Source of the DNA: a bacterium
Lineage (GTDB): Bacteria > Patescibacteriota > Minisyncoccia > Moranbacterales > UBA2206
Assembly: GCA_030654225.1 (NCBI GenBank)
Contig: JAURXY010000027.1
Location: 1 to 58,980, forward strand
Reading direction: 5' to 3'
Length of the DNA stretch: 58,980 nucleotides
Part shown: positions 1,836-8,109 of the stretch, in pieces
Layout: each line of letters begins with the position of its first letter
Position numbering within the stretch: the stretch's first letter is position 1
Program-made: the position numbers and the translations under genes
Notes under the pieces: generated by a model
What the model was told of the DNA's origin: nothing
Seen by the model: the letters and a program-made list of their open reading frames with translations, nothing else
Databases searched by the model: none

Positions 1836-2060
1836 ATGAACAACAACGAAGTAATTGAAAAAAAGATCTGCCATTTTTGTCAGAACAAAATGGATAAAAT
1901 TGACTTTAAGGATTCCTATCTTTTACGTCGTTTTATGAATTCTCAGGGAAAAATTTATCCACCAAAGAGACACGGGACTTGTGCTCGTCATCAAAGATCT
2001 CTCGCTAATGCCATAAAAAAAGCGCGAACTATGGCTCTTGTGCCATTTGTCGCTAGATAA
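1836..2060 (+). CDS. rpsR: 30S ribosomal protein S18
   Basis: CHFC...IDFKD..LLRRF....GKI.P.R.TG.CA.HQR.L..AIK.AR motif and operon position. Confidence 0.95.
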
Positions 2061-2064
2061 ATTC

Positions 2065-2622
2065 ATGTTAAATATAAACGAAATAAAAACCGGAACAAAT
2101 ATCATTCAGGGCGGTACTCCATATGTTGTGCTCTATCACGAGCATTCCAAGACTGGCCGAGCTGGTTCAGTTCTTCGCACTCGTCTCAAGAATTTAGCCA
2201 ATGGAACTGTTTTGGAAAAAACTTTTCAAGGTTCAGAAGCAGTCGAAGAAGCTGATGTTTCCAAAAGTAAGGCACAATATACCTACAAGGAAAGTGACAG
2301 CTATAATTTCATGGACAATGAGTCATATGAACAATTCACTCTTTCTAAGGAGGCGCTAGGAGACAATATCAACTATCTCAAAGAAGGCACAGAAGTTTCT
2401 ATTTTGAATTTCAACGGCAATCCAATCAATATCGAATTGCCCATCAAAATAACTTTGCGCGTGATTGAAGCGCCACCAGGAGTGAAAGGCAACACCGTTT
2501 CCACTGGCGGAAAAATGGTGACACTTGAAACCGGCATCAAAGTTTCTACTCCGCTTTTTGTGAAGGAAGGTGATGAAGTCATCATCAACACAGAAAAGGG
2601 TGAGTATGTTTCTAGAGCCTAA
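2065..2622 (+). CDS. efp: elongation factor P
   Basis: MLNINEIKTG...YVVLYHEHSKTGRAGSVLRTRLKNL is a full-length EF-P pattern. I start it at the ATG at 2065, just after the rpsR stop, rather than at the track start 2038. Confidence 0.93.
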   Translation: MLNINEIKTGTNIIQGGTPYVVLYHEHSKTGRAGSVLRTRLKNLANGTVLEKTFQGSEAVEEADVSKSKAQYTYKESDSYNFMDNESYEQFTLSKEALGDNINYLKEGTEVSILNFNGNPINIELPIKITLRVIEAPPGVKGNTVSTGGKMVTLETGIKVSTPLFVKEGDEVIINTEKGEYVSRA

Positions 2623-2712: not shown

Positions 2713-3258
2713 CTAGTCTTCATTTTTTTCATGCATCACTTTGCCTTTTTCAATCTCCTGAAAAAGCAAAGGCTTATTTTTATTAATTTTTATCATCTCG
2801 CTTGGACTTTTTACAATAATTTGCGCTCTTTCTGCAAATTCTGAATTGTTTATCATTTTTCTAACTCCATTGATATTATTAGTTAAAACAAATAAATCGA
2901 TATCGCTATCTTTTTTGTTCGTTCCATTGGCAAATGATCCAAATAAAATGATTTCTATACTATCATTTTTTAATTTGTTTATTAATGGTTCTAATTTTGA
3001 AACATTTAATAATACTTTTATCTCGCGAATTAGATTATTTTTACTATCAGCTTGATACAAAGAAGTTCGCCCGATTTTTTTGCACTTTATAATTTTATTT
3101 TCTGACAATTTTCGCAAAGCCAAATTAACTGCCGATTTCTTAACACCTGTTTTTTTCACTATTTCTTTTTCTTGAAATTCTTTTCCGGCATTTTCCACCA
3201 AAAAAACCAGCGCCTTTTGTTGAGAGGTTATAAAAATAATCTTTTCAATTATACTCAT
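2713..3258 (-). CDS. winged-HTH plus minimal nucleotidyltransferase domain protein
   Basis: N-terminal wHTH-like segment. The central GSFANG...SDIDLFV is the GS-X-DxD signature of polbeta-type NTases. Confidence 0.7.
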   Translation of the reverse strand: MSIIEKIIFITSQQKALVFLVENAGKEFQEKEIVKKTGVKKSAVNLALRKLSENKIIKCKKIGRTSLYQADSKNNLIREIKVLLNVSKLEPLINKLKNDSIEIILFGSFANGTNKKDSDIDLFVLTNNINGVRKMINNSEFAERAQIIVKSPSEMIKINKNKPLLFQEIEKGKVMHEKNED

Positions 3259-3323
3259 ATTTTTATTCCATTATTTTGGATATATTTCCATTATACTGGA
3301 ATATCACTTATTTGTCAACTACT

Positions 3324-3400
3324 CTACTCTGACCTTTCCGCTCCTCTCCACGCCAACTCAAAAATCGCCTTTTGGGAACGGGCGATTTTGAGGGCTTTAA
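3324..3400 (-). pseudogene. remnant of the 3' end of a fourth TrmB-family gene
   Basis: The minus frame reads ...KIARSQKAIFELAWRGAERSE*, against the C-terminus ITRSQKAIFELAWRGAGD of the 8186-8938 protein. 3338-3388 matches 8209-8259 at 48 of 51 nt. There is no upstream ORF or start codon. Confidence 0.65.
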
Positions 3401-3496
3401 TTTTCCTTTTTTTGGAGCAAGCTTTGATTTTTTTTGCTAGCCTTACAAAAGTTCATTGAAAAAAGAAAGAACTTGGATTAAATTTTTTGGGATTTT

Positions 3497-4291
3497 TTAA
3501 TCAGAAAATAATTGATCTATTGAAACGGGTTTTCCTTGAGTATAAAGCAAATGAAAAAAAGTGCTTAATGACTGATAGATATTTTTGTTTTTTATCATTA
3601 CGATAAAATTTTCTTGCGGAACTAAAATAAAAGAAAGGTCCGGATATAGCAAATAAAGATTGATAGAAAAAGGAAATTGCTGATTATCAATGACGCGAAC
3701 AGTGGCTGGTCTTTGCATGGCAATTTCTTTTGTTTTTTTGGGAATATTATTAAAAATTTCCAGCATTTTTTCAGTAATGATGCCTTGTGTTATAACACCT
3801 TTTTCCAAAAATTTTTTCTGCCAGCGATGATTGAAATCATTCCCAAGTTTTTCCAAGGAATCTGCCAAGGCCTCTTCGCTTTCGATTAAAAATGCCGGGG
3901 TTTTATATTTCATAACGAGCATTGTTTCATAAAGTTTGCGTAAACCTTCAGCCGTATCAAAATATTCAACAGAAGATCTCTTGTTTTTTATATCTAACAT
4001 TTTTTCTAAGCTTGGTACCATCGTTCCAAAACTATCTATTTTTCTTTGCCATTCTTCCTGAATGACTGAAGGATTGATGGCAGAAAAATATTCTACTGTA
4101 TCTTTTTTTGCTTTTTTCAAATAACCCTTATTTAGCAAATTTTTGACATAAATATAGATTGATGTTCGCGGGATATCCACCTCTTTCGCTAATTCGGAAA
4201 TTTTTGATTTTCCCAGTTTCAAGCAAGCTAGATATATTTCCGCTTCTTGATTTTTGAGTCCTAGTTTTCTTAGTGATTCTTGATATTTCAT
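3497..4291 (-). CDS. TrmB-family HTH transcriptional regulator (module 1)
   Basis: LGL...EAEIYLACLKLG...ISELAKEVDIPRTSIYIYVKNLLNKGYL is the TrmB-type wHTH. Paralogous to 5875-6603 and 8186-8938. Confidence 0.8.
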   Translation of the reverse strand: MKYQESLRKLGLKNQEAEIYLACLKLGKSKISELAKEVDIPRTSIYIYVKNLLNKGYLKKAKKDTVEYFSAINPSVIQEEWQRKIDSFGTMVPSLEKMLDIKNKRSSVEYFDTAEGLRKLYETMLVMKYKTPAFLIESEEALADSLEKLGNDFNHRWQKKFLEKGVITQGIITEKMLEIFNNIPKKTKEIAMQRPATVRVIDNQQFPFSINLYLLYPDLSFILVPQENFIVMIKNKNIYQSLSTFFHLLYTQGKPVSIDQLFSD

Positions 4292-4297
4292 AAAAGC

Positions 4298-4328
4298 ATT
4301 TTATACTTTGTTGACTTTTTTGTCAACA
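4298..4328 (-). promoter_or_regulatory. promoter with palindromic operator of the module-1 TrmB gene (probably leaderless)
   Basis: TTGACA 4321-4326, N17, TAAAAT 4298-4303, then only 6 nt to the ATG at 4291. The palindrome TGTTGAC-T6-GTCAACA (4309-4328) overlaps the -35. Confidence 0.5.
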
Positions 4329-4460
4329 TAACAGCACGGTTAATTGCTTTATAATAGGCATAATTAATAAAAATTATATTTCTCGTTTTATTTTAAAACA
4401 AAAAACTTTTAAAATGCAATAGTTGATGTAGTTGTTTAACAATCAAAGAGGAGGTGTGAT

Positions 4461-4616
4461 ATGGCATTGGGAATTGAGGGAAGCGCCGGAAAATTAAAAT
4501 TGGTAGCGGTGGAAGAAAAAAAAGACGGGAAAAACAAAAATGAAACACCGTCAAAGATTAACAATAATGATGACAAGCGCTCAAAAAATAAAGGCGCTCA
4601 AGAAAGGGAGGTGTGA
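4461..4616 (+). CDS. 51-aa Lys-rich small ORF sharing RBS and N-terminus with the downstream radical SAM gene (candidate precursor or leader peptide)
   Basis: AGAGGAGGTGTGAT precedes the ATG. Product: MALGIEGSAGKLKLVAVEEKKDGKNKNETPSKINNNDDKRSKNKGAQEREV. The TGA stop lies 1 nt before the next ATG. It is below the ORF-track size cutoff. Confidence 0.5.
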   Translation: MALGIEGSAGKLKLVAVEEKKDGKNKNETPSKINNNDDKRSKNKGAQEREV

Positions 4617-4617
4617 T

Positions 4618-5598
4618 ATGGCAGTAGGATTTGAAGGAAGTGCGGGATCACTGATTCCGCGAATTAAAAGCATTTCTCTGTTCATTAACAATATGTGCAA
4701 CTTGCGTTGCCCGTATTGTTATGTTTCGGCTTTAAACAAAGAAGTACCTGTCGAAATCAAAGTAGATGATATTATAAAATTCATTAATGTGGTTCACGAA
4801 AAATGTGAATTGGAGAGTGTTGTCATTGTCGGTCGAGAGCCTCTTTTATCTCCCAAAGTGATGCTCGAGGTTCTTCAGGAGATACAAAAAATGGGTATTC
4901 CCAAAGTTGGCATTATAACCAATGGGACACTCATTACGAAAAAAATTGCCAAAAAATTGGCAGGGCTGGTTTCTTTTGTGGATGTTTCGTTTGACGGGCT
5001 TAAAGAAGCCCACGAAAAAACAAGAGGAAGAGGTAGTTTTGCCAAAACAGTAGCTGGCACTAAGCGTCTTCTTGATGCAGGTATAGATGTTTTTGTCCTG
5101 CATAAAGTGGACAGTGCATCTGCACCGCAACTGAACGAGTTTGCGGAATTTATGTGGAATATGGGAGTTAAAAATATCCACATATTCACATTGTATCCAA
5201 GAGACATTAAAGCCGATGTCTTTATGGATGCAATCAAAGAACTTGTGGATAGTCCGCCATCGGAAATGCTTATTTCTATTAAGGGAGATTATTTCGACAA
5301 AGAGATCCTTTCAGCACTTTCTGATTACATTTGCAATGAAAAAATGGTAGAGAGTGTAGAAGGAATATCTTTTATTGAGAAAAGCATCAAACACAACAGC
5401 ATTCTACGAGTGATGCTGGAAAATGAACCGGCGGAATTTCGCAGAGGTCTGAGAATAGACTGCTTCGGCCGGCTTGTTTTCTGTGCTGATCAAGCGCGAA
5501 GCTTAAAGCGTCCGGTGGGAAATATCTCTGAAAGTTTGGAGGAGATATTTTCACGAACATCTCTGATTCATAAAATCATAGACGACTATGTAATATAA
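4618..5598 (+). CDS. radical SAM protein (about 326 aa, short C-terminal CX6C, no full SPASM signature seen)
   Basis: CNLRCPYC (CX3CX2C) at residue 27, plus VGREPLL and GIITNGTL motifs. Start chosen at 4618 (GGGAGGTGTGAT before the ATG) rather than the track start 4540. Confidence 0.85.
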   Translation: MAVGFEGSAGSLIPRIKSISLFINNMCNLRCPYCYVSALNKEVPVEIKVDDIIKFINVVHEKCELESVVIVGREPLLSPKVMLEVLQEIQKMGIPKVGIITNGTLITKKIAKKLAGLVSFVDVSFDGLKEAHEKTRGRGSFAKTVAGTKRLLDAGIDVFVLHKVDSASAPQLNEFAEFMWNMGVKNIHIFTLYPRDIKADVFMDAIKELVDSPPSEMLISIKGDYFDKEILSALSDYICNEKMVESVEGISFIEKSIKHNSILRVMLENEPAEFRRGLRIDCFGRLVFCADQARSLKRPVGNISESLEEIFSRTSLIHKIIDDYVI

Positions 5599-5669
5599 TC
5601 AAACGGTCCCAATTGTAAAGAGCAAAGTTAGATTTTTAAATGACTAAATGCGCGGTCACATGAGGAAAA

Positions 5670-5708
5670 AGGCAGGCGTCGAGAACTTCGACCCTGCCTA
5701 TTTTTTTT
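5670..5708 (+). terminator. rho-independent terminator
   Basis: Stem AGGCAGG...CCTGCCT followed by T8. Confidence 0.75.
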
Positions 5709-5874: not shown

Positions 5875-6603
5875 CTATTTCGAAGTTTTCCACAAATATT
5901 CAAAAATATTTTTCATTGCTTCGGCGATTTTTTGGTTTTTAATAATAACGCCAGAGGGATTTTTTTTGTCGAAAGCGACAACTGCCAATTTGTCATCGTA
6001 AACATTAATTTCGATTTCAAGATCTTGAAAAAGTTTGATAAATTTCATCTCACGAAGCATTTCTTTGGCATTTTTCAAATGCTTTCTGCCTTCAATACTT
6101 TCCGGGATCAGATTTTTTACCCTCACTCCATGCGCCACTCTTTTAGGCAAATAATCATTCAAAAAGAAATCTTCCATATCATTTTGTGCGCTTTTGAAAT
6201 CCGTGATGGCATAAATCATTTTATTGGTATTTTCCCGCCAAGTATCAGCATAAAGATTTTTCACGCCTTCCATTCCTTCGAAATAGCTTACTTTTGATAG
6301 CAAGGATTTATTCTGATTTTGATTTTTTGCTGATCTAATAAGTTTTTGGTTTTCCAGTTTGAAATAATCATTTCTTTTTGCGATCCAAGTTTCCAAATCT
6401 TTCTCGCTTATCGCTTTGAAAACATCCTTATTGCCAACGCTAATTTTGGAAACCAAGCCTTTTTCCAAAAGTCTTTCCAAGACGGGATAAACAGTGGTCC
6501 TGTTTATCATATTTTCTTTCGCCAATTCACAAACCGAGACCTCTCCCAATTTATACAGACTAGCCAAAACATCCCTTTCTTTTTCGCTTAAAATATAATT
6601 CAT
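5875..6603 (-). CDS. TrmB-family HTH transcriptional regulator (module 2)
   Basis: LSEKERDVLASLYKLGEVSVCELAKENMINRTTVYPVLERLLEKGLV wHTH, with the same C-terminal architecture as its paralogs. Confidence 0.8.
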   Translation of the reverse strand: MNYILSEKERDVLASLYKLGEVSVCELAKENMINRTTVYPVLERLLEKGLVSKISVGNKDVFKAISEKDLETWIAKRNDYFKLENQKLIRSAKNQNQNKSLLSKVSYFEGMEGVKNLYADTWRENTNKMIYAITDFKSAQNDMEDFFLNDYLPKRVAHGVRVKNLIPESIEGRKHLKNAKEMLREMKFIKLFQDLEIEINVYDDKLAVVAFDKKNPSGVIIKNQKIAEAMKNIFEYLWKTSK

Positions 6604-6623
6604 AAAGTTTTCATTACGTCTTA

Positions 6624-6684
6624 ATAATACGCCTTGTTGTCAATCGTGTCAACACTTTGACAAATATTTTTATTATGATATTAT
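6624..6684. promoter_or_regulatory. back-to-back divergent promoters with three GTCAA/TTGAC half-sites
   Basis: Minus strand: TTGACA 6647-6652, N17, TATTAT 6624-6629. Plus strand: TTGACA 6657-6662, N16, TATTAT 6679-6684. An extra TGTCAA lies at 6638-6643. Confidence 0.5.
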
Positions 6685-6753
6685 TTTCTATCCTGCTATT
6701 AGAGCAGTGTGTTATTTAAAAACTTAATAAAACAACAATATAGGAGGTGTAAA

Positions 6754-6906
6754 ATGCTTACCCCAGAAGAATTAGCAATAATAATAAAATTTATTTCAGA
6801 AAAACTAAATAAGCCACTGAAAGAGGTGGCGGAGGAAGTCTTGGAAGCGCAACGGGAAATGACAGAAGAATCTCTTAAAGAGGAGTTAAAGAAGTTTAAA
6901 AATTAA
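6754..6906 (+). CDS. 50-aa acidic helical small protein
   Basis: TAGGAGGTGTAAA precedes the ATG at 6754. The track start 6709 lacks an RBS. Confidence 0.45.
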   Translation: MLTPEELAIIIKFISEKLNKPLKEVAEEVLEAQREMTEESLKEELKKFKN

Positions 6907-6937
6907 GGTTTAATTAAATAATTGGGAGGGGATAAAA

Positions 6938-7195
6938 ATGAAAAGAAGAAAGGTTCATAGCTACTTTATAGCAATCAAAGAAATCAAAGAACATCCGAAT
7001 TTTAAAAAAATATTAGAAAGTTTGGAAACTGAGGGATTTGAGTTGGAAGAAGTAGAGATTACGAAAGAAAAACTTGGTGATTTTAATTTTTTGAAAAAAT
7101 ACATGAGACAAATAAACTTTCTCGAAGCAGGAAGAAAATTTAAAGAAAGTGGTTTCGAAAATGGATATTCCTACTTCTTAATATTCGAAATCTAA
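6938..7195 (+). CDS. hypothetical protein (85 aa)
   Basis: GGGAGGGGATAAAA precedes the ATG. No motif recognised. Confidence 0.5.
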   Translation: MKRRKVHSYFIAIKEIKEHPNFKKILESLETEGFELEEVEITKEKLGDFNFLKKYMRQINFLEAGRKFKESGFENGYSYFLIFEI

Positions 7196-7230
7196 ACAGT
7201 TAAAATTTTTCAAAAAAAAGGAGAAAAGAC

Positions 7231-8109
7231 ATGTTAAAAGAAAAAATCACCAATCCGTGGTTAAGATTCCAGATTATGGATATTCTTAATATTTCCGAAG
7301 AAGAAAAAATGGAAATAACTAAGAAAGCATTTCTTTTTATTGTTAAATGCACAGGAGATTTGTATATTCCATATGATGAAATAAAAAAATATCTTGCAAG
7401 AATTACCAAGAAATATCCTGTCATTGAAAAAATAAAAGACGAGGAAATACTCGAGTCATTGAGATGTTTTATTACTAAAACACCTGGGACATATCATAAA
7501 ATTACTCATTTGGAAATGTTGACTACTATTAAGATTTTTTTCAAAAATCTTGAAACCATTAAAAAAATTGAAAGGATGATCTATCGTTCATATGTACTTG
7601 CTCCCCCTTATGAACCATCGCATGCTTTCCATATTCAATATAAATGGGCGCTATCAAAAAAAGAAAAAAATGCAATAGTTCGGGATGTTATTAAAGAAAG
7701 AACGGGCTATCAAAGTGCAATATTTCTTGCAAAACGTTTCAAGATGCCAACAAAAAAACTATATTGGGCGCTTAGTGAAGAAGAAAAAATGGAAATAACC
7801 GAAAAAATTATAAAGGGATATCCTGATAATTGGAAAAAGAAGCTTGAAAAAATATTCGGCAATAAGAGAGCAACTAGTGCCATCCGGAAATATTATGAAA
7901 GACTTCTAATTAAAAACAATTATGATGAAGCCGAGGTCGTGGGAAAATATCCTACTATAATTTTAAAAGTATTATTATCAAAAATAAATAAATGTTATCT
8001 ATGGGATGCTTCTGAATTCGCGCAAAGATTTATGCCTGAAAGGAAAGAAATCTTAAAGGAACTAAAGATCCTTGAGGATGCAGAGATGGCATTTTATGCC
8101 ACTTTATAA
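7231..8109 (+). CDS. hypothetical protein (292 aa) with an internal duplication
   Basis: AAGGAGAAAAGAC precedes the ATG. The 23-nt exact repeat GAAGAAGAAAAAATGGAAATAAC occurs at 7297-7319 and 7777-7799, encoding SEEEKMEIT twice, 160 aa apart. Confidence 0.6.
   Translation: MLKEKITNPWLRFQIMDILNISEEEKMEITKKAFLFIVKCTGDLYIPYDEIKKYLARITKKYPVIEKIKDEEILESLRCFITKTPGTYHKITHLEMLTTIKIFFKNLETIKKIERMIYRSYVLAPPYEPSHAFHIQYKWALSKKEKNAIVRDVIKERTGYQSAIFLAKRFKMPTKKLYWALSEEEKMEITEKIIKGYPDNWKKKLEKIFGNKRATSAIRKYYERLLIKNNYDEAEVVGKYPTIILKVLLSKINKCYLWDASEFAQRFMPERKEILKELKILEDAEMAFYATL

Follow-up and report, generated by a model that had tools for sequence, protein, structure and literature searches.

The DNA analyzed here, which we refer to as the window, is the 58,980-nucleotide (nt) stretch at positions 1 to 58,980 of contig JAURXY010000027.1 (assembly GCA_030654225.1), from a bacterium of the order Moranbacterales (Patescibacteriota). 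The locus of interest in the window is a three-gene module that encodes a TrmB-type regulator, a peptide of 51 amino acids (aa) and a radical S-adenosylmethionine (rSAM) enzyme. The rSAM enzyme (326 aa; 4618..5598, + strand), characterized with Pfam, NCBIfam and an alignment of its orthologues, starts with the motif MAVGFEGSAGSL, contains a C27-X3-C31-X2-C34 triad and matches the Pfam model Radical_SAM PF04055 (E = 1.5e-24, 87 bits vs. a cut-off of 29.5). Directly 5' of it lies a small open reading frame (ORF; 4461..4616, + strand), the product of which is found in the protein database as P0197. Codons 1-12 of the small ORF (4461-4496, + strand) encode the motif MALGIEGSAGKL, codons 13-51 (within 4461..4616, + strand) form a hydrophilic, purine-rich and hypervariable tail, and its TGA (4614-4616) ends 1 nt before the rSAM ATG at 4618. 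Both genes begin inside a direct repeat (family D1), each copy of which comprises a ribosome-binding site GGAGGTG, an ATG and codons 2-10. Copy 1 (4450..4490, + strand) belongs to the small ORF and copy 2 (4607..4647, + strand) to the rSAM gene, whose ribosome-binding site sits within the final codons of the small ORF.

The TrmB-family winged-helix regulator (264 aa; 3497..4291, - strand; Pfam TrmB, E = 1.2e-15) is encoded divergently from the peptide-rSAM pair. Between them is a perfect palindrome, GTTGAC-TTTTTT-GTCAAC (4310..4327), a candidate operator that overlaps the -35 element of a TrmB promoter-like site (TTGACA-17-TAAAAT; 4326..4298, - strand; 11/12 matches in a consensus scan) and abuts the -35 element of a promoter-like site for the peptide-rSAM operon (ATAACA-16-TATAAT; 4328..4355, + strand; 10/12 matches, a pattern match only). 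Downstream of the rSAM gene is a putative intrinsic terminator (5671..5708, + strand), i.e., a hairpin of GGCAGG-C-GTCGA, loop GAACT and TCGAC-CCTGCC followed by TATTTTTTTT; this hairpin with its T8 tract was read by eye and was not listed by a simple terminator scan.

The 17-mer GGAGGTGTGATATGGCA is present at 4450-4466 and 4607-4623 and nowhere else in the window, and it had no match with two or fewer mismatches in 100 dinucleotide-preserving shuffles. The repeat reaches 41 nt at 85% identity (4450-4490 vs. 4607-4647), with a spacing of 157 nt. In codons 3-10 the two copies differ at six nucleotides, three of which are synonymous, while the rest result in L/V and I/F. The small-ORF product contains no Cys, and 12 of its 51 residues (24%) are Lys or Arg. 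The sequence features described in an earlier note on this DNA, from the repeat and the abutting ORFs to the radical SAM identity, the divergent regulator, the palindrome and the terminator, were all confirmed here.

All sequences related to the module are metagenomic, and several of the loci are short contigs. Among 5.8 billion clusters, the close family of the window rSAM enzyme comprised six further sequences that are 60-66% identical to it, one of which is from a metagenome-assembled genome (MAG) of Candidatus Moranbacteria, and an exhaustive profile search of 1.84 billion representatives yielded a single 50%-identity cluster for this Moranbacteria-like family. The independent lineages in the family number about five to seven. 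A small ORF of 40-54 aa was found directly 5' of the rSAM gene in seven lineages (the window, L001, L004, L016, L006, L008, and L007), in all of which both products start with MA[LVMI]G[FI]EGSAGxL. Orthologues of the small-ORF product are also found in the protein database as P0196 and P0198-P0203, where P0201 is an eighth variant that is known from this database only. A divergent gene for a 263-aa TrmB occupies the same position in L001, L004, L007, and L009, as well as in the more distant locus L024; in L006 a 263-aa TrmB gene starts upstream, and in L026 and L027, two other loci considered below, TrmB genes of 255 and 264 aa are divergent. Among the seven lineages, the divergent TrmB gene was found wherever the flank was long enough. 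A box with the sequence TTGTC-N6-GTCAA is kept in the orthologous intergenic regions, and L024 has GTTGA-N7-GTCAAC. The co-occurrence of the trio and of the shared start, which the earlier note had proposed to look for, thus extends over the seven lineages with DNA, and the small ORF stands beside every intact orthologous rSAM gene.

In all seven lineages, the stop of the small ORF ends at -2, 0 or +16 nt from the rSAM ATG, and both starts carry the strong GGAGGTG ribosome-binding site. The start-stop geometry is thus conserved, although the spacers between ribosome-binding site and ATG of the two copies differ in the orthologous loci. From this geometry, the small ORF and the rSAM gene are predicted to be translationally coupled. 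Exact identity over 17 nt, including the spacer, is found only in the window lineage and may be a recent local event. It is the peptide that the family has kept.

L009/L010 is the sole locus of the family without the small ORF. Here the rSAM gene begins where the small ORF begins elsewhere; the L009 gene (5001-5925) has lost 21 codons and 1 base, with the ends joined at a short TCCGC repeat, and is frameshifted and split into ORFs of 185 and 141 aa. Given the broken rSAM gene and the nested position of L009/L010 within the ORF-bearing clade of a neighbor-joining tree, the missing small ORF is attributed to a secondary loss, with which the enzyme decayed. An absent, frameshifted or unconserved small ORF was therefore found next to no intact orthologue.

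L004 and L016 are from near-identical strains, in which the bodies of the TrmB and rSAM genes differ at 2 of ~1,700 aligned nt. At L004 1100-1550, 38 substitutions, mostly transitions, and a 6-nt in-frame indel are crowded into a patch that runs from the TrmB start through the intergenic region and the small ORF to nt 45 of the rSAM gene. This patch reflects either recombination or a local hot spot. A diversity-generating retroelement was rejected as its source, because transitions dominate and the changes are not adenine-specific.

Selection was evaluated on codons 2-10 of 15 head copies. The variable sites were distributed over codon positions 1, 2, and 3 as 2/0/7, with an identical split in the small-ORF copies alone. 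The ratio of nonsynonymous to synonymous differences per site (pN/pS) was 0.11 for the small-ORF heads and 0.12 for the rSAM heads, with a pS of about 0.53 in both, and position 3 (L/V/M/I) and position 5 (F/I) were the only ones with amino acid changes. Given that the synonymous sites are near-saturated while the amino acids are kept, selection acts on the peptide and not on the nucleotide sequence. The conservation of the small-ORF head reflects selection on the peptide itself, as the earlier note had suspected from the two window copies, and the duplicated segment shows purifying selection on both copies instead of a neutral pattern. An RNA-level role of the repeat was rejected in view of the near-saturated synonymous sites and the lack of significant structure: the RNA fold of 4400-4680 had a z of -1.28, 15 of 200 shuffles folded at least as well, and attenuator-type alternative structures were not supported.

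The same data bear on whether the small ORF could be a neutral remnant, left when part of the gene's 5' end was duplicated in tandem, with its similarity upheld by occasional gene conversion. Such an origin would account for the exact 17-mer of the window copies, noncoding spacer included, and for the Ala codon that is the same in both copies in five of the seven genomes. The copies within a genome were, however, not more alike than those between genomes (30 differences vs. a mean of 31.7; permutation fraction 0.34), and with no such excess similarity gene conversion was rejected as the main cause of head conservation. Moreover, the pair has been kept open in seven lineages whose rSAM enzymes are only 60-66% identical to that of the window, and independent lineages repeat the peptide-plus-enzyme pattern. 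If neutral, direct repeats 122-160 nt apart should be deleted, and the one lineage without the small ORF has also lost the enzyme. We find the neutral explanation barely credible.

The tails of the small ORFs are hydrophilic, with net charges from +3 to -11, contain in-frame indels and have dN/dS values (nonsynonymous over synonymous substitution rates) of 0.34-0.64. In the window, the tail (4497-4606) is 73.6% A+G and 12.7% T, which places it in the top 1.3% of all 110-nt segments of the window, and the purine-rich bias is common to all orthologous tails despite their differing amino acids and net charges. A purine-rich, weakly constrained tail, together with the conserved stop-start geometry and the strong ribosome-binding site at both starts, would fit a small ORF that serves solely in cis as an aid to translation, by loading ribosomes or by opening the mRNA ahead of the rSAM gene, in which case the peptide would be functionless and its head a copied optimal initiation region. 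The low pN/pS of the heads at a pS of about 0.53 indicates instead that the peptide is selected. As described below, the motif also occurs internally, away from start codons, in tandem-repeat peptides and enzymes, as well as in the archaeal-type locus L025, where neither start is preceded by a Shine-Dalgarno-like sequence; furthermore, the mRNA has no significant structure to open. A purely cis-acting role is thus improbable. In known coupled upstream or leader ORFs, too, a short ORF ends at or in the start region of the next gene and each gene has its ribosome-binding site, whereas here selection is on the 12 N-terminal amino acids of the product, with which the downstream protein also begins, and there is no alternative RNA structure. 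A programmed frameshift that joins the small ORF to the rSAM gene was also rejected: the ATG offsets of 122-160 nt comprise six of +1 and one of +2 mod 3, and no conserved slippery site was seen at the junctions.

In the rSAM enzyme, the Cys residues of the CX3CX2C triad (C27/C31/C34) are invariant among the orthologues. The earlier note had pointed to a short C-terminal CX6C in place of a full SPASM signature. The window enzyme indeed has no match to SPASM PF13186, but of the CX6C pair only the second Cys (C289) is conserved in the orthologues. This is the one conserved Cys outside the triad in the window family, and the relatives with the canonical form of the motif (see below) likewise have one invariant C-terminal Cys; some of these relatives gave weak matches to the SPASM model (E from 7.5e-5 to 2.5e-3). 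With a single conserved Cys outside CX3CX2C, these enzymes have no auxiliary cluster.

With the window enzyme and its relatives, all NCBIfam models stayed below their cut-offs, and the best for the window enzyme was StsB (112 bits vs. a cut-off of 625). The core of the enzyme (residues about 14-200) matches the MoaA, NirJ, AhbD, and viperin models with E-values of 1e-15 to 1e-22, and viperin, MoaA, and BlsE are among its fold matches. These matches could suggest a housekeeping role or one on small molecules, as for MoaA, NirJ/AhbD, a viperin-like enzyme or an activase, in which the upstream ORF would have no part. However, all NCBIfam scores, those for AhbC and the anaerobic sulfatase maturase included, are far under the family cut-offs (58-63 bits vs. 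231-325 for MoaA, 69 vs. 515 for NirJ, 65 vs. 500 for AhbD and 71 vs. 180 for viperin), and the C-terminal half is family-specific. The Moranbacteria-like enzymes also form one 50%-identity cluster, and the next relatives (E about 1e-40) are themselves encoded behind motif-bearing peptides. We therefore consider a housekeeping function very improbable. Membership in known peptide or defence families was also rejected: for the motif peptides, Pfam and NCBIfam gave nothing significant, with the best match at E = 0.054 and far below its cut-off, and for the rSAM PADLOC returned only generic viperin-core matches.

The AlphaFold2 models of the window enzyme (predicted local distance difference test, pLDDT, 86.4; predicted template modeling score, pTM, 0.86) and of the canonical relative P0096 (pLDDT 91.6, pTM 0.91) are confident except at the N-terminal tip, where residues 1-12 and 1-7, respectively, have pLDDT < 50. 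In the window model, strands and helices alternate, and the first core strand comprises residues 18-21. In a profile search of the PDB, the nearest solved relatives were CteB (E = 2.7e-20) and SkfB (4.3e-15), and the top Foldseek matches were CteB, SuiB, SkfB, and anSME, with template modeling (TM) scores of about 0.55-0.66. By both profile and fold, then, the nearest kin are peptide-modifying maturases of the SPASM/twitch group, and the window enzyme stands on a divergent branch of a large clade, as yet without a name, that is akin to them. The family profile aligns to CteB from CteB residue 99 on only. The first ~100 residues of CteB we take, from its structure, to be the leader-binding domain known as the precursor peptide recognition element (RRE) of peptides that are ribosomally synthesized and modified post-translationally (RiPPs), and we thus regard an RRE domain as absent here.

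The motif of the window module is a derived form. With P0096 (Candidatus Pacebacteria) as the seed, 222 clusters were found at E <= 1e-20, so that the enzyme family numbers at least 222 clusters, with labels that include Firestonebacteria, Dehalococcoidia, Deltaproteobacteria, Ignavibacteriales, Bacteroidales, Rhodothermaceae, Methyloglobulus, and Pacearchaeota, among others. They are annotated generically as 'radical SAM protein' or mislabeled as 'AslB' or 'MoaA/NifB/PqqE', and the enzymes of the motif family are 326-370 aa long. The canonical form of the motif is MAxGΦSGSNGGI (canonical peptide MALGFSGSNGGI), and its strict form stands at the start of 94 of 100 aligned P0096-like enzymes. 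In this alignment, M1, A2, G4, S6, G7, S8, and G11 reach 4.2-4.3 bits, which is the level of the Cys triad, while the ~23 residues after the motif are at about 1 bit. The Moranbacteria-like branch differs by S6E and N9A (MAxGΦEGSAGxL), and this derived form is common to its peptides and enzymes. It should be noted that the earlier note had envisaged a candidate substrate that mimics its own maturase; the motif is instead ancestral to a large enzyme family, and the peptide is a copy of the enzyme N-terminus.

The motif is distributed over enzymes and free peptides in three ways. It is found on the enzyme only, in the form MA[VLI](P)G[FL]SGS[NT]GG[IV], in Candidatus Brocadia (L012), a Nanoarchaeota MAG (L013), a Pseudomonadota MAG (L014), and Candidatus Scalindua (L015), and the motif is likewise on the enzyme only in L026-L028. 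It is found on peptides only in L023 and L024, and on both in the window's family, in L025 and probably in the P0090 locus. The next rSAM relatives, P0050 and P0051 (E about 1e-40), align from residue 13 on and hence are without the motif, yet in the P0050 locus (L023) two small motif ORFs lie 5' of the motif-free rSAM gene. The first encodes MALGLSGSNGGIKK...KWTIDLYKKVKK, and the second, which overlaps the rSAM start, encodes MATPGLSGSGGGVF...KWVINLYKK.... In L024, a divergent gene for a 263-aa TrmB is followed by a 39-aa motif peptide, the 49-aa P0205 with two tandem motifs (MAVGFSGSNGGIKGMAMGFSGSNGGIT...) and then an rSAM enzyme without the motif. In L025, an AsnC-type regulator gene precedes the 85-aa P0207 with two motifs, a 1-nt gap and an rSAM enzyme that starts with MALGLSGSNGGV; the three motif copies differ mainly by synonymous changes, and no Shine-Dalgarno-like sequence was seen 5' of either start. 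The pattern in the window is thus not unique to it, contrary to the impression conveyed by the earlier note.

Further stand-alone motif peptides are P0205-P0211, and as 40 candidates from a word-indexed peptide search were examined, the census of free peptides is a lower bound. Two tandem motif copies are present in the peptides P0205, P0206, P0207, P0208, and P0210 and in the enzymes P0309 and P0319. Because the internal copies keep Met-Ala (once Phe-Ala), position 1 belongs to the motif and is not just a start codon. Between lineages, the free peptides have only the motif in common, and their tails are unrelated. In the split loci (L023 1232-1589 and 1577-2623; L024 4875-6235), the peptides end in a K-W-x-I-x-L-Y-K-K segment, which resembles how their own enzymes begin (MQFVKWFNEIKK, MKFDKWFKKLQ). 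These peptides thus look like copies of a longer ancestral region that consisted of the motif, a linker and the first helix.

In three loci outside the candidate phyla with the motif on the enzyme (L028 1-6056, L012 1099-4110, and L014 975-4134), the motif-bearing rSAM gene is the last gene after those for a SIR2_2-domain protein and BPD_transp_1 permease(s), with stops and starts that overlap or abut. The SIR2_2 proteins of L012, L014, and L028 are ThsA/LmuA-like in PADLOC, and L028 contains a full Opp/Dpp-type importer (ATPase, SBP_bac_5 and two permeases). No relative was found in a viral contig collection, and a phage origin was rejected.

From these observations we infer that the motif may be a peptide acted on by the rSAM enzyme, to which it would be joined in cis in most members and offered in trans in some, a reading to which we give an even chance. 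It is suggested by several features. The motif is conserved like an active site, on a flexible and variable tether at the extreme N-terminus; it occupies the place of the substrate-recognition domain of the relatives, the nearest solved of which are peptide maturases; it can be duplicated in tandem and recurs on free peptides directly upstream; protein-level selection acts at both sites, with co-divergence of peptide and enzyme in the window's branch; and the small ORF and an intact rSAM enzyme were lost together in L009/L010. The clade is without the leader-binding RRE domain and auxiliary Fe-S clusters of its relatives, both of which it has lost, and carries the 12-residue N-terminal motif in their place. 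According to the substrate model, the enzyme would modify itself in most members, in which the motif is tethered, as in fused borosin methyltransferases, whereas several lineages would have gained extra or replacement motif copies as stand-alone peptides directly 5' of the enzyme. The small ORF of the window would then be a free motif copy, born by duplication of the 5' end of the rSAM gene. Peptide and enzyme would be co-transcribed from a TrmB-controlled promoter, and the peptide stop at the enzyme start would allow termination-reinitiation coupling, by which both are made together, while the peptide tail would be a weakly constrained hydrophilic spacer. Of this picture, the gene arrangement and its conservation, the protein-level selection on both motif copies and the spread of the motif over the family are shown by the data, whereas the modification and its chemistry, in vivo coupling, TrmB control and the biological role are deduced.

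Several points weigh against a substrate role of the peptide, for which a modification is so far putative. Characterized rSAM cross-links use Cys, Trp, Lys or Tyr, and the motif, which is built from Met, Ala, Gly, Ser, one hydrophobic residue and Asn or Glu, contains none of these. Pfam and the orthologue alignment revealed no recognizable peptide-binding domain or auxiliary cluster in the enzyme. The motif of the Moranbacteria-like branch ends only about 5 residues before the first core strand and could thus get to the active site of its own enzyme only on a fully extended chain or within a dimer, and AlphaFold2 docked the motif nowhere in the models of the window enzyme and P0096. In the candidate-phylum loci, no protease or exporter gene was found alongside the module.

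A conserved N-terminal tag on a flexible tether would fit a partner-binding or autoinhibitory motif equally well. The motif could accordingly be a docking or regulatory handle that binds a partner or serves as an autoinhibitory plug, with which the free peptide competes and so tunes what the enzyme does or binds. The partner might be the SIR2-like protein that is encoded alongside in other phyla, an electron donor, or the ligand domain of the TrmB or AsnC regulator. Short linear binding motifs typically sit, like this one, at the extreme end of a chain on a variable tether, the motif offers no residue that is typical of known rSAM cross-links, the SIR2_2 protein is encoded directly 5' of the rSAM enzyme in L012, L014, and L028, and the candidate-phylum and archaeal-type loci always have, next to the module, a dedicated regulator gene whose product contains a ligand-binding domain. 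However, the candidate partners vary by lineage (SIR2 and Opp transporter, TrmB, AsnC), while the motif is invariant. Tandem motifs in one peptide or enzyme are typical of multi-core substrates and not of a single docking tag, and the nearest kin of the enzyme are peptide-modifying maturases. We thus consider a docking handle unlikely, though not markedly so. Mimicry of a glycyl-radical site by the A-V-G-F-S segment was rejected. Glycyl radical enzymes have the motif RVxG[YF], from which the register differs; in addition, the aromatic position varies (F/L/W/I), and a radical would find no shelter in a disordered peptide.

The substrate reading can be compared with known systems. As in the rSAM/SPASM-twitch RiPP maturases, to which CteB, SkfB, and SuiB belong, a small peptide gene lies directly 5' of the enzyme gene, and the peptide gene is co-located and co-conserved with it (seven lineages; L023, L024, and L025). 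The window enzyme also keeps a remnant of the GX4C hairpin of these maturases (G284...C289). It does not have their auxiliary-cluster Cys motif (CX2CX5CX3C or the twitch subset), and the PqqD-like RRE that is present in many, though not all, of them is missing, with a core strand from about residue 18. In contrast to RiPP precursors, the peptide has no conserved Cys, Trp or Lys, and its conserved part is the extreme N-terminus, which is also found on the enzyme. A leader/core organization is therefore not apparent, as the N-terminus is conserved and the C-terminus variable.

The borosins include fused systems (OphMA-type, autocatalytic) as well as split ones in a single family (PMC8429565; bioRxiv 10.1101/2021.12.24.474128). 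Likewise, the putative substrate sequence is here on the modifying enzyme in most members and on a discrete peptide in others, and the sequence pattern parallels fused (L012-L015 and L026-L028) and split (L023 and L024) loci, with both forms in the window and L025. We regard this as an analogy and do not count the module among the borosin-type systems. The borosin enzyme is an alpha-N-methyltransferase and its core is C-terminal, whereas a radical SAM enzyme and an N-terminal motif are found here, as are a fused and a split copy in the same locus, with a modification that is putative. In the His-Xaa-Ser system, a repeat-motif peptide is matured by an rSAM enzyme, and this system was recently reported to be antiphage (PMC13128918). 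Both systems have a short invariant motif, repeatable in tandem, on a small protein encoded beside an rSAM gene, as well as a patchy phyletic spread, and defence-like surroundings are found in places here (SIR2_2 in L012, L014, and L028; AbiEii around L001). The motifs are, however, different, NCBIfam HxsB scored far below its cut-off and the motif is fused to the enzyme here; the likeness is not evidence for phage defence.

Around the module, a second TrmB/MarR-like winged-helix regulator (242 aa) is encoded just 3' of it on the opposite strand (window 5875-6603, - strand), and extra TrmB paralogues are also found nearby in L006 and L009. An ORF of 181 aa in the window (2713-3258, - strand) appears by eye to encode a helix-turn-helix and nucleotidyltransferase-like protein. 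In L001, AbiEii genes and unannotated 204-aa ORFs are found on both sides of the module (639-1469, 3280-3894, and 6236-7623), and an ORF of the same size (204 aa) in the equivalent position of L009 matches PaaX_M. The neighborhood of the module in the window and L001 thus looks like a toxin-antitoxin or defence island. An elongation factor P-like ORF in the window (2038-2622, + strand), judged by eye, serves as a landmark only.

A small peptide encoded with an rSAM enzyme is already a known kind of system. The motif strings did not occur in the searchable literature of about 8.3 million papers, which on fused rSAM precursors offered analogies only, and no family library queried describes an rSAM clade with a putative substrate at its own N-terminus, without RRE or auxiliary clusters and in fused, split and mixed loci. 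If the motif is the substrate, this would be, as far as we are aware, the first rSAM family with a substrate peptide built into the enzyme N-terminus, with no need for an RRE or auxiliary cluster and with fused, split and mixed architectures all within one clade. Taken further, the results could point to a family of self-modifying rSAM enzymes, widespread in bacteria and archaea (at least 222 clusters), that carry their own substrate as an invariant N-terminal dodecapeptide and convert it into a protein-derived group or a released small peptide. In such a family, free peptides would have been spun off repeatedly by 5'-end duplication, and the window would be an intermediate with a fused and a free copy. 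We offer this broader picture tentatively and rate its chance at somewhat below even. If it holds, the SIR2-like protein and the Opp-type peptide importer that are linked to the enzyme in other phyla would point to a peptide signal or conflict system. The motif or its Moranbacteria-like variant is a simple handle for genome mining. A motif that is the substrate would further provide a compact and testable system with a 12-residue substrate and possibly new rSAM chemistry on a Gly/Ser-rich peptide, would define a family that is now annotated generically or mislabeled, and would show that short precursor genes can arise by duplication of the 5' end of an enzyme gene.

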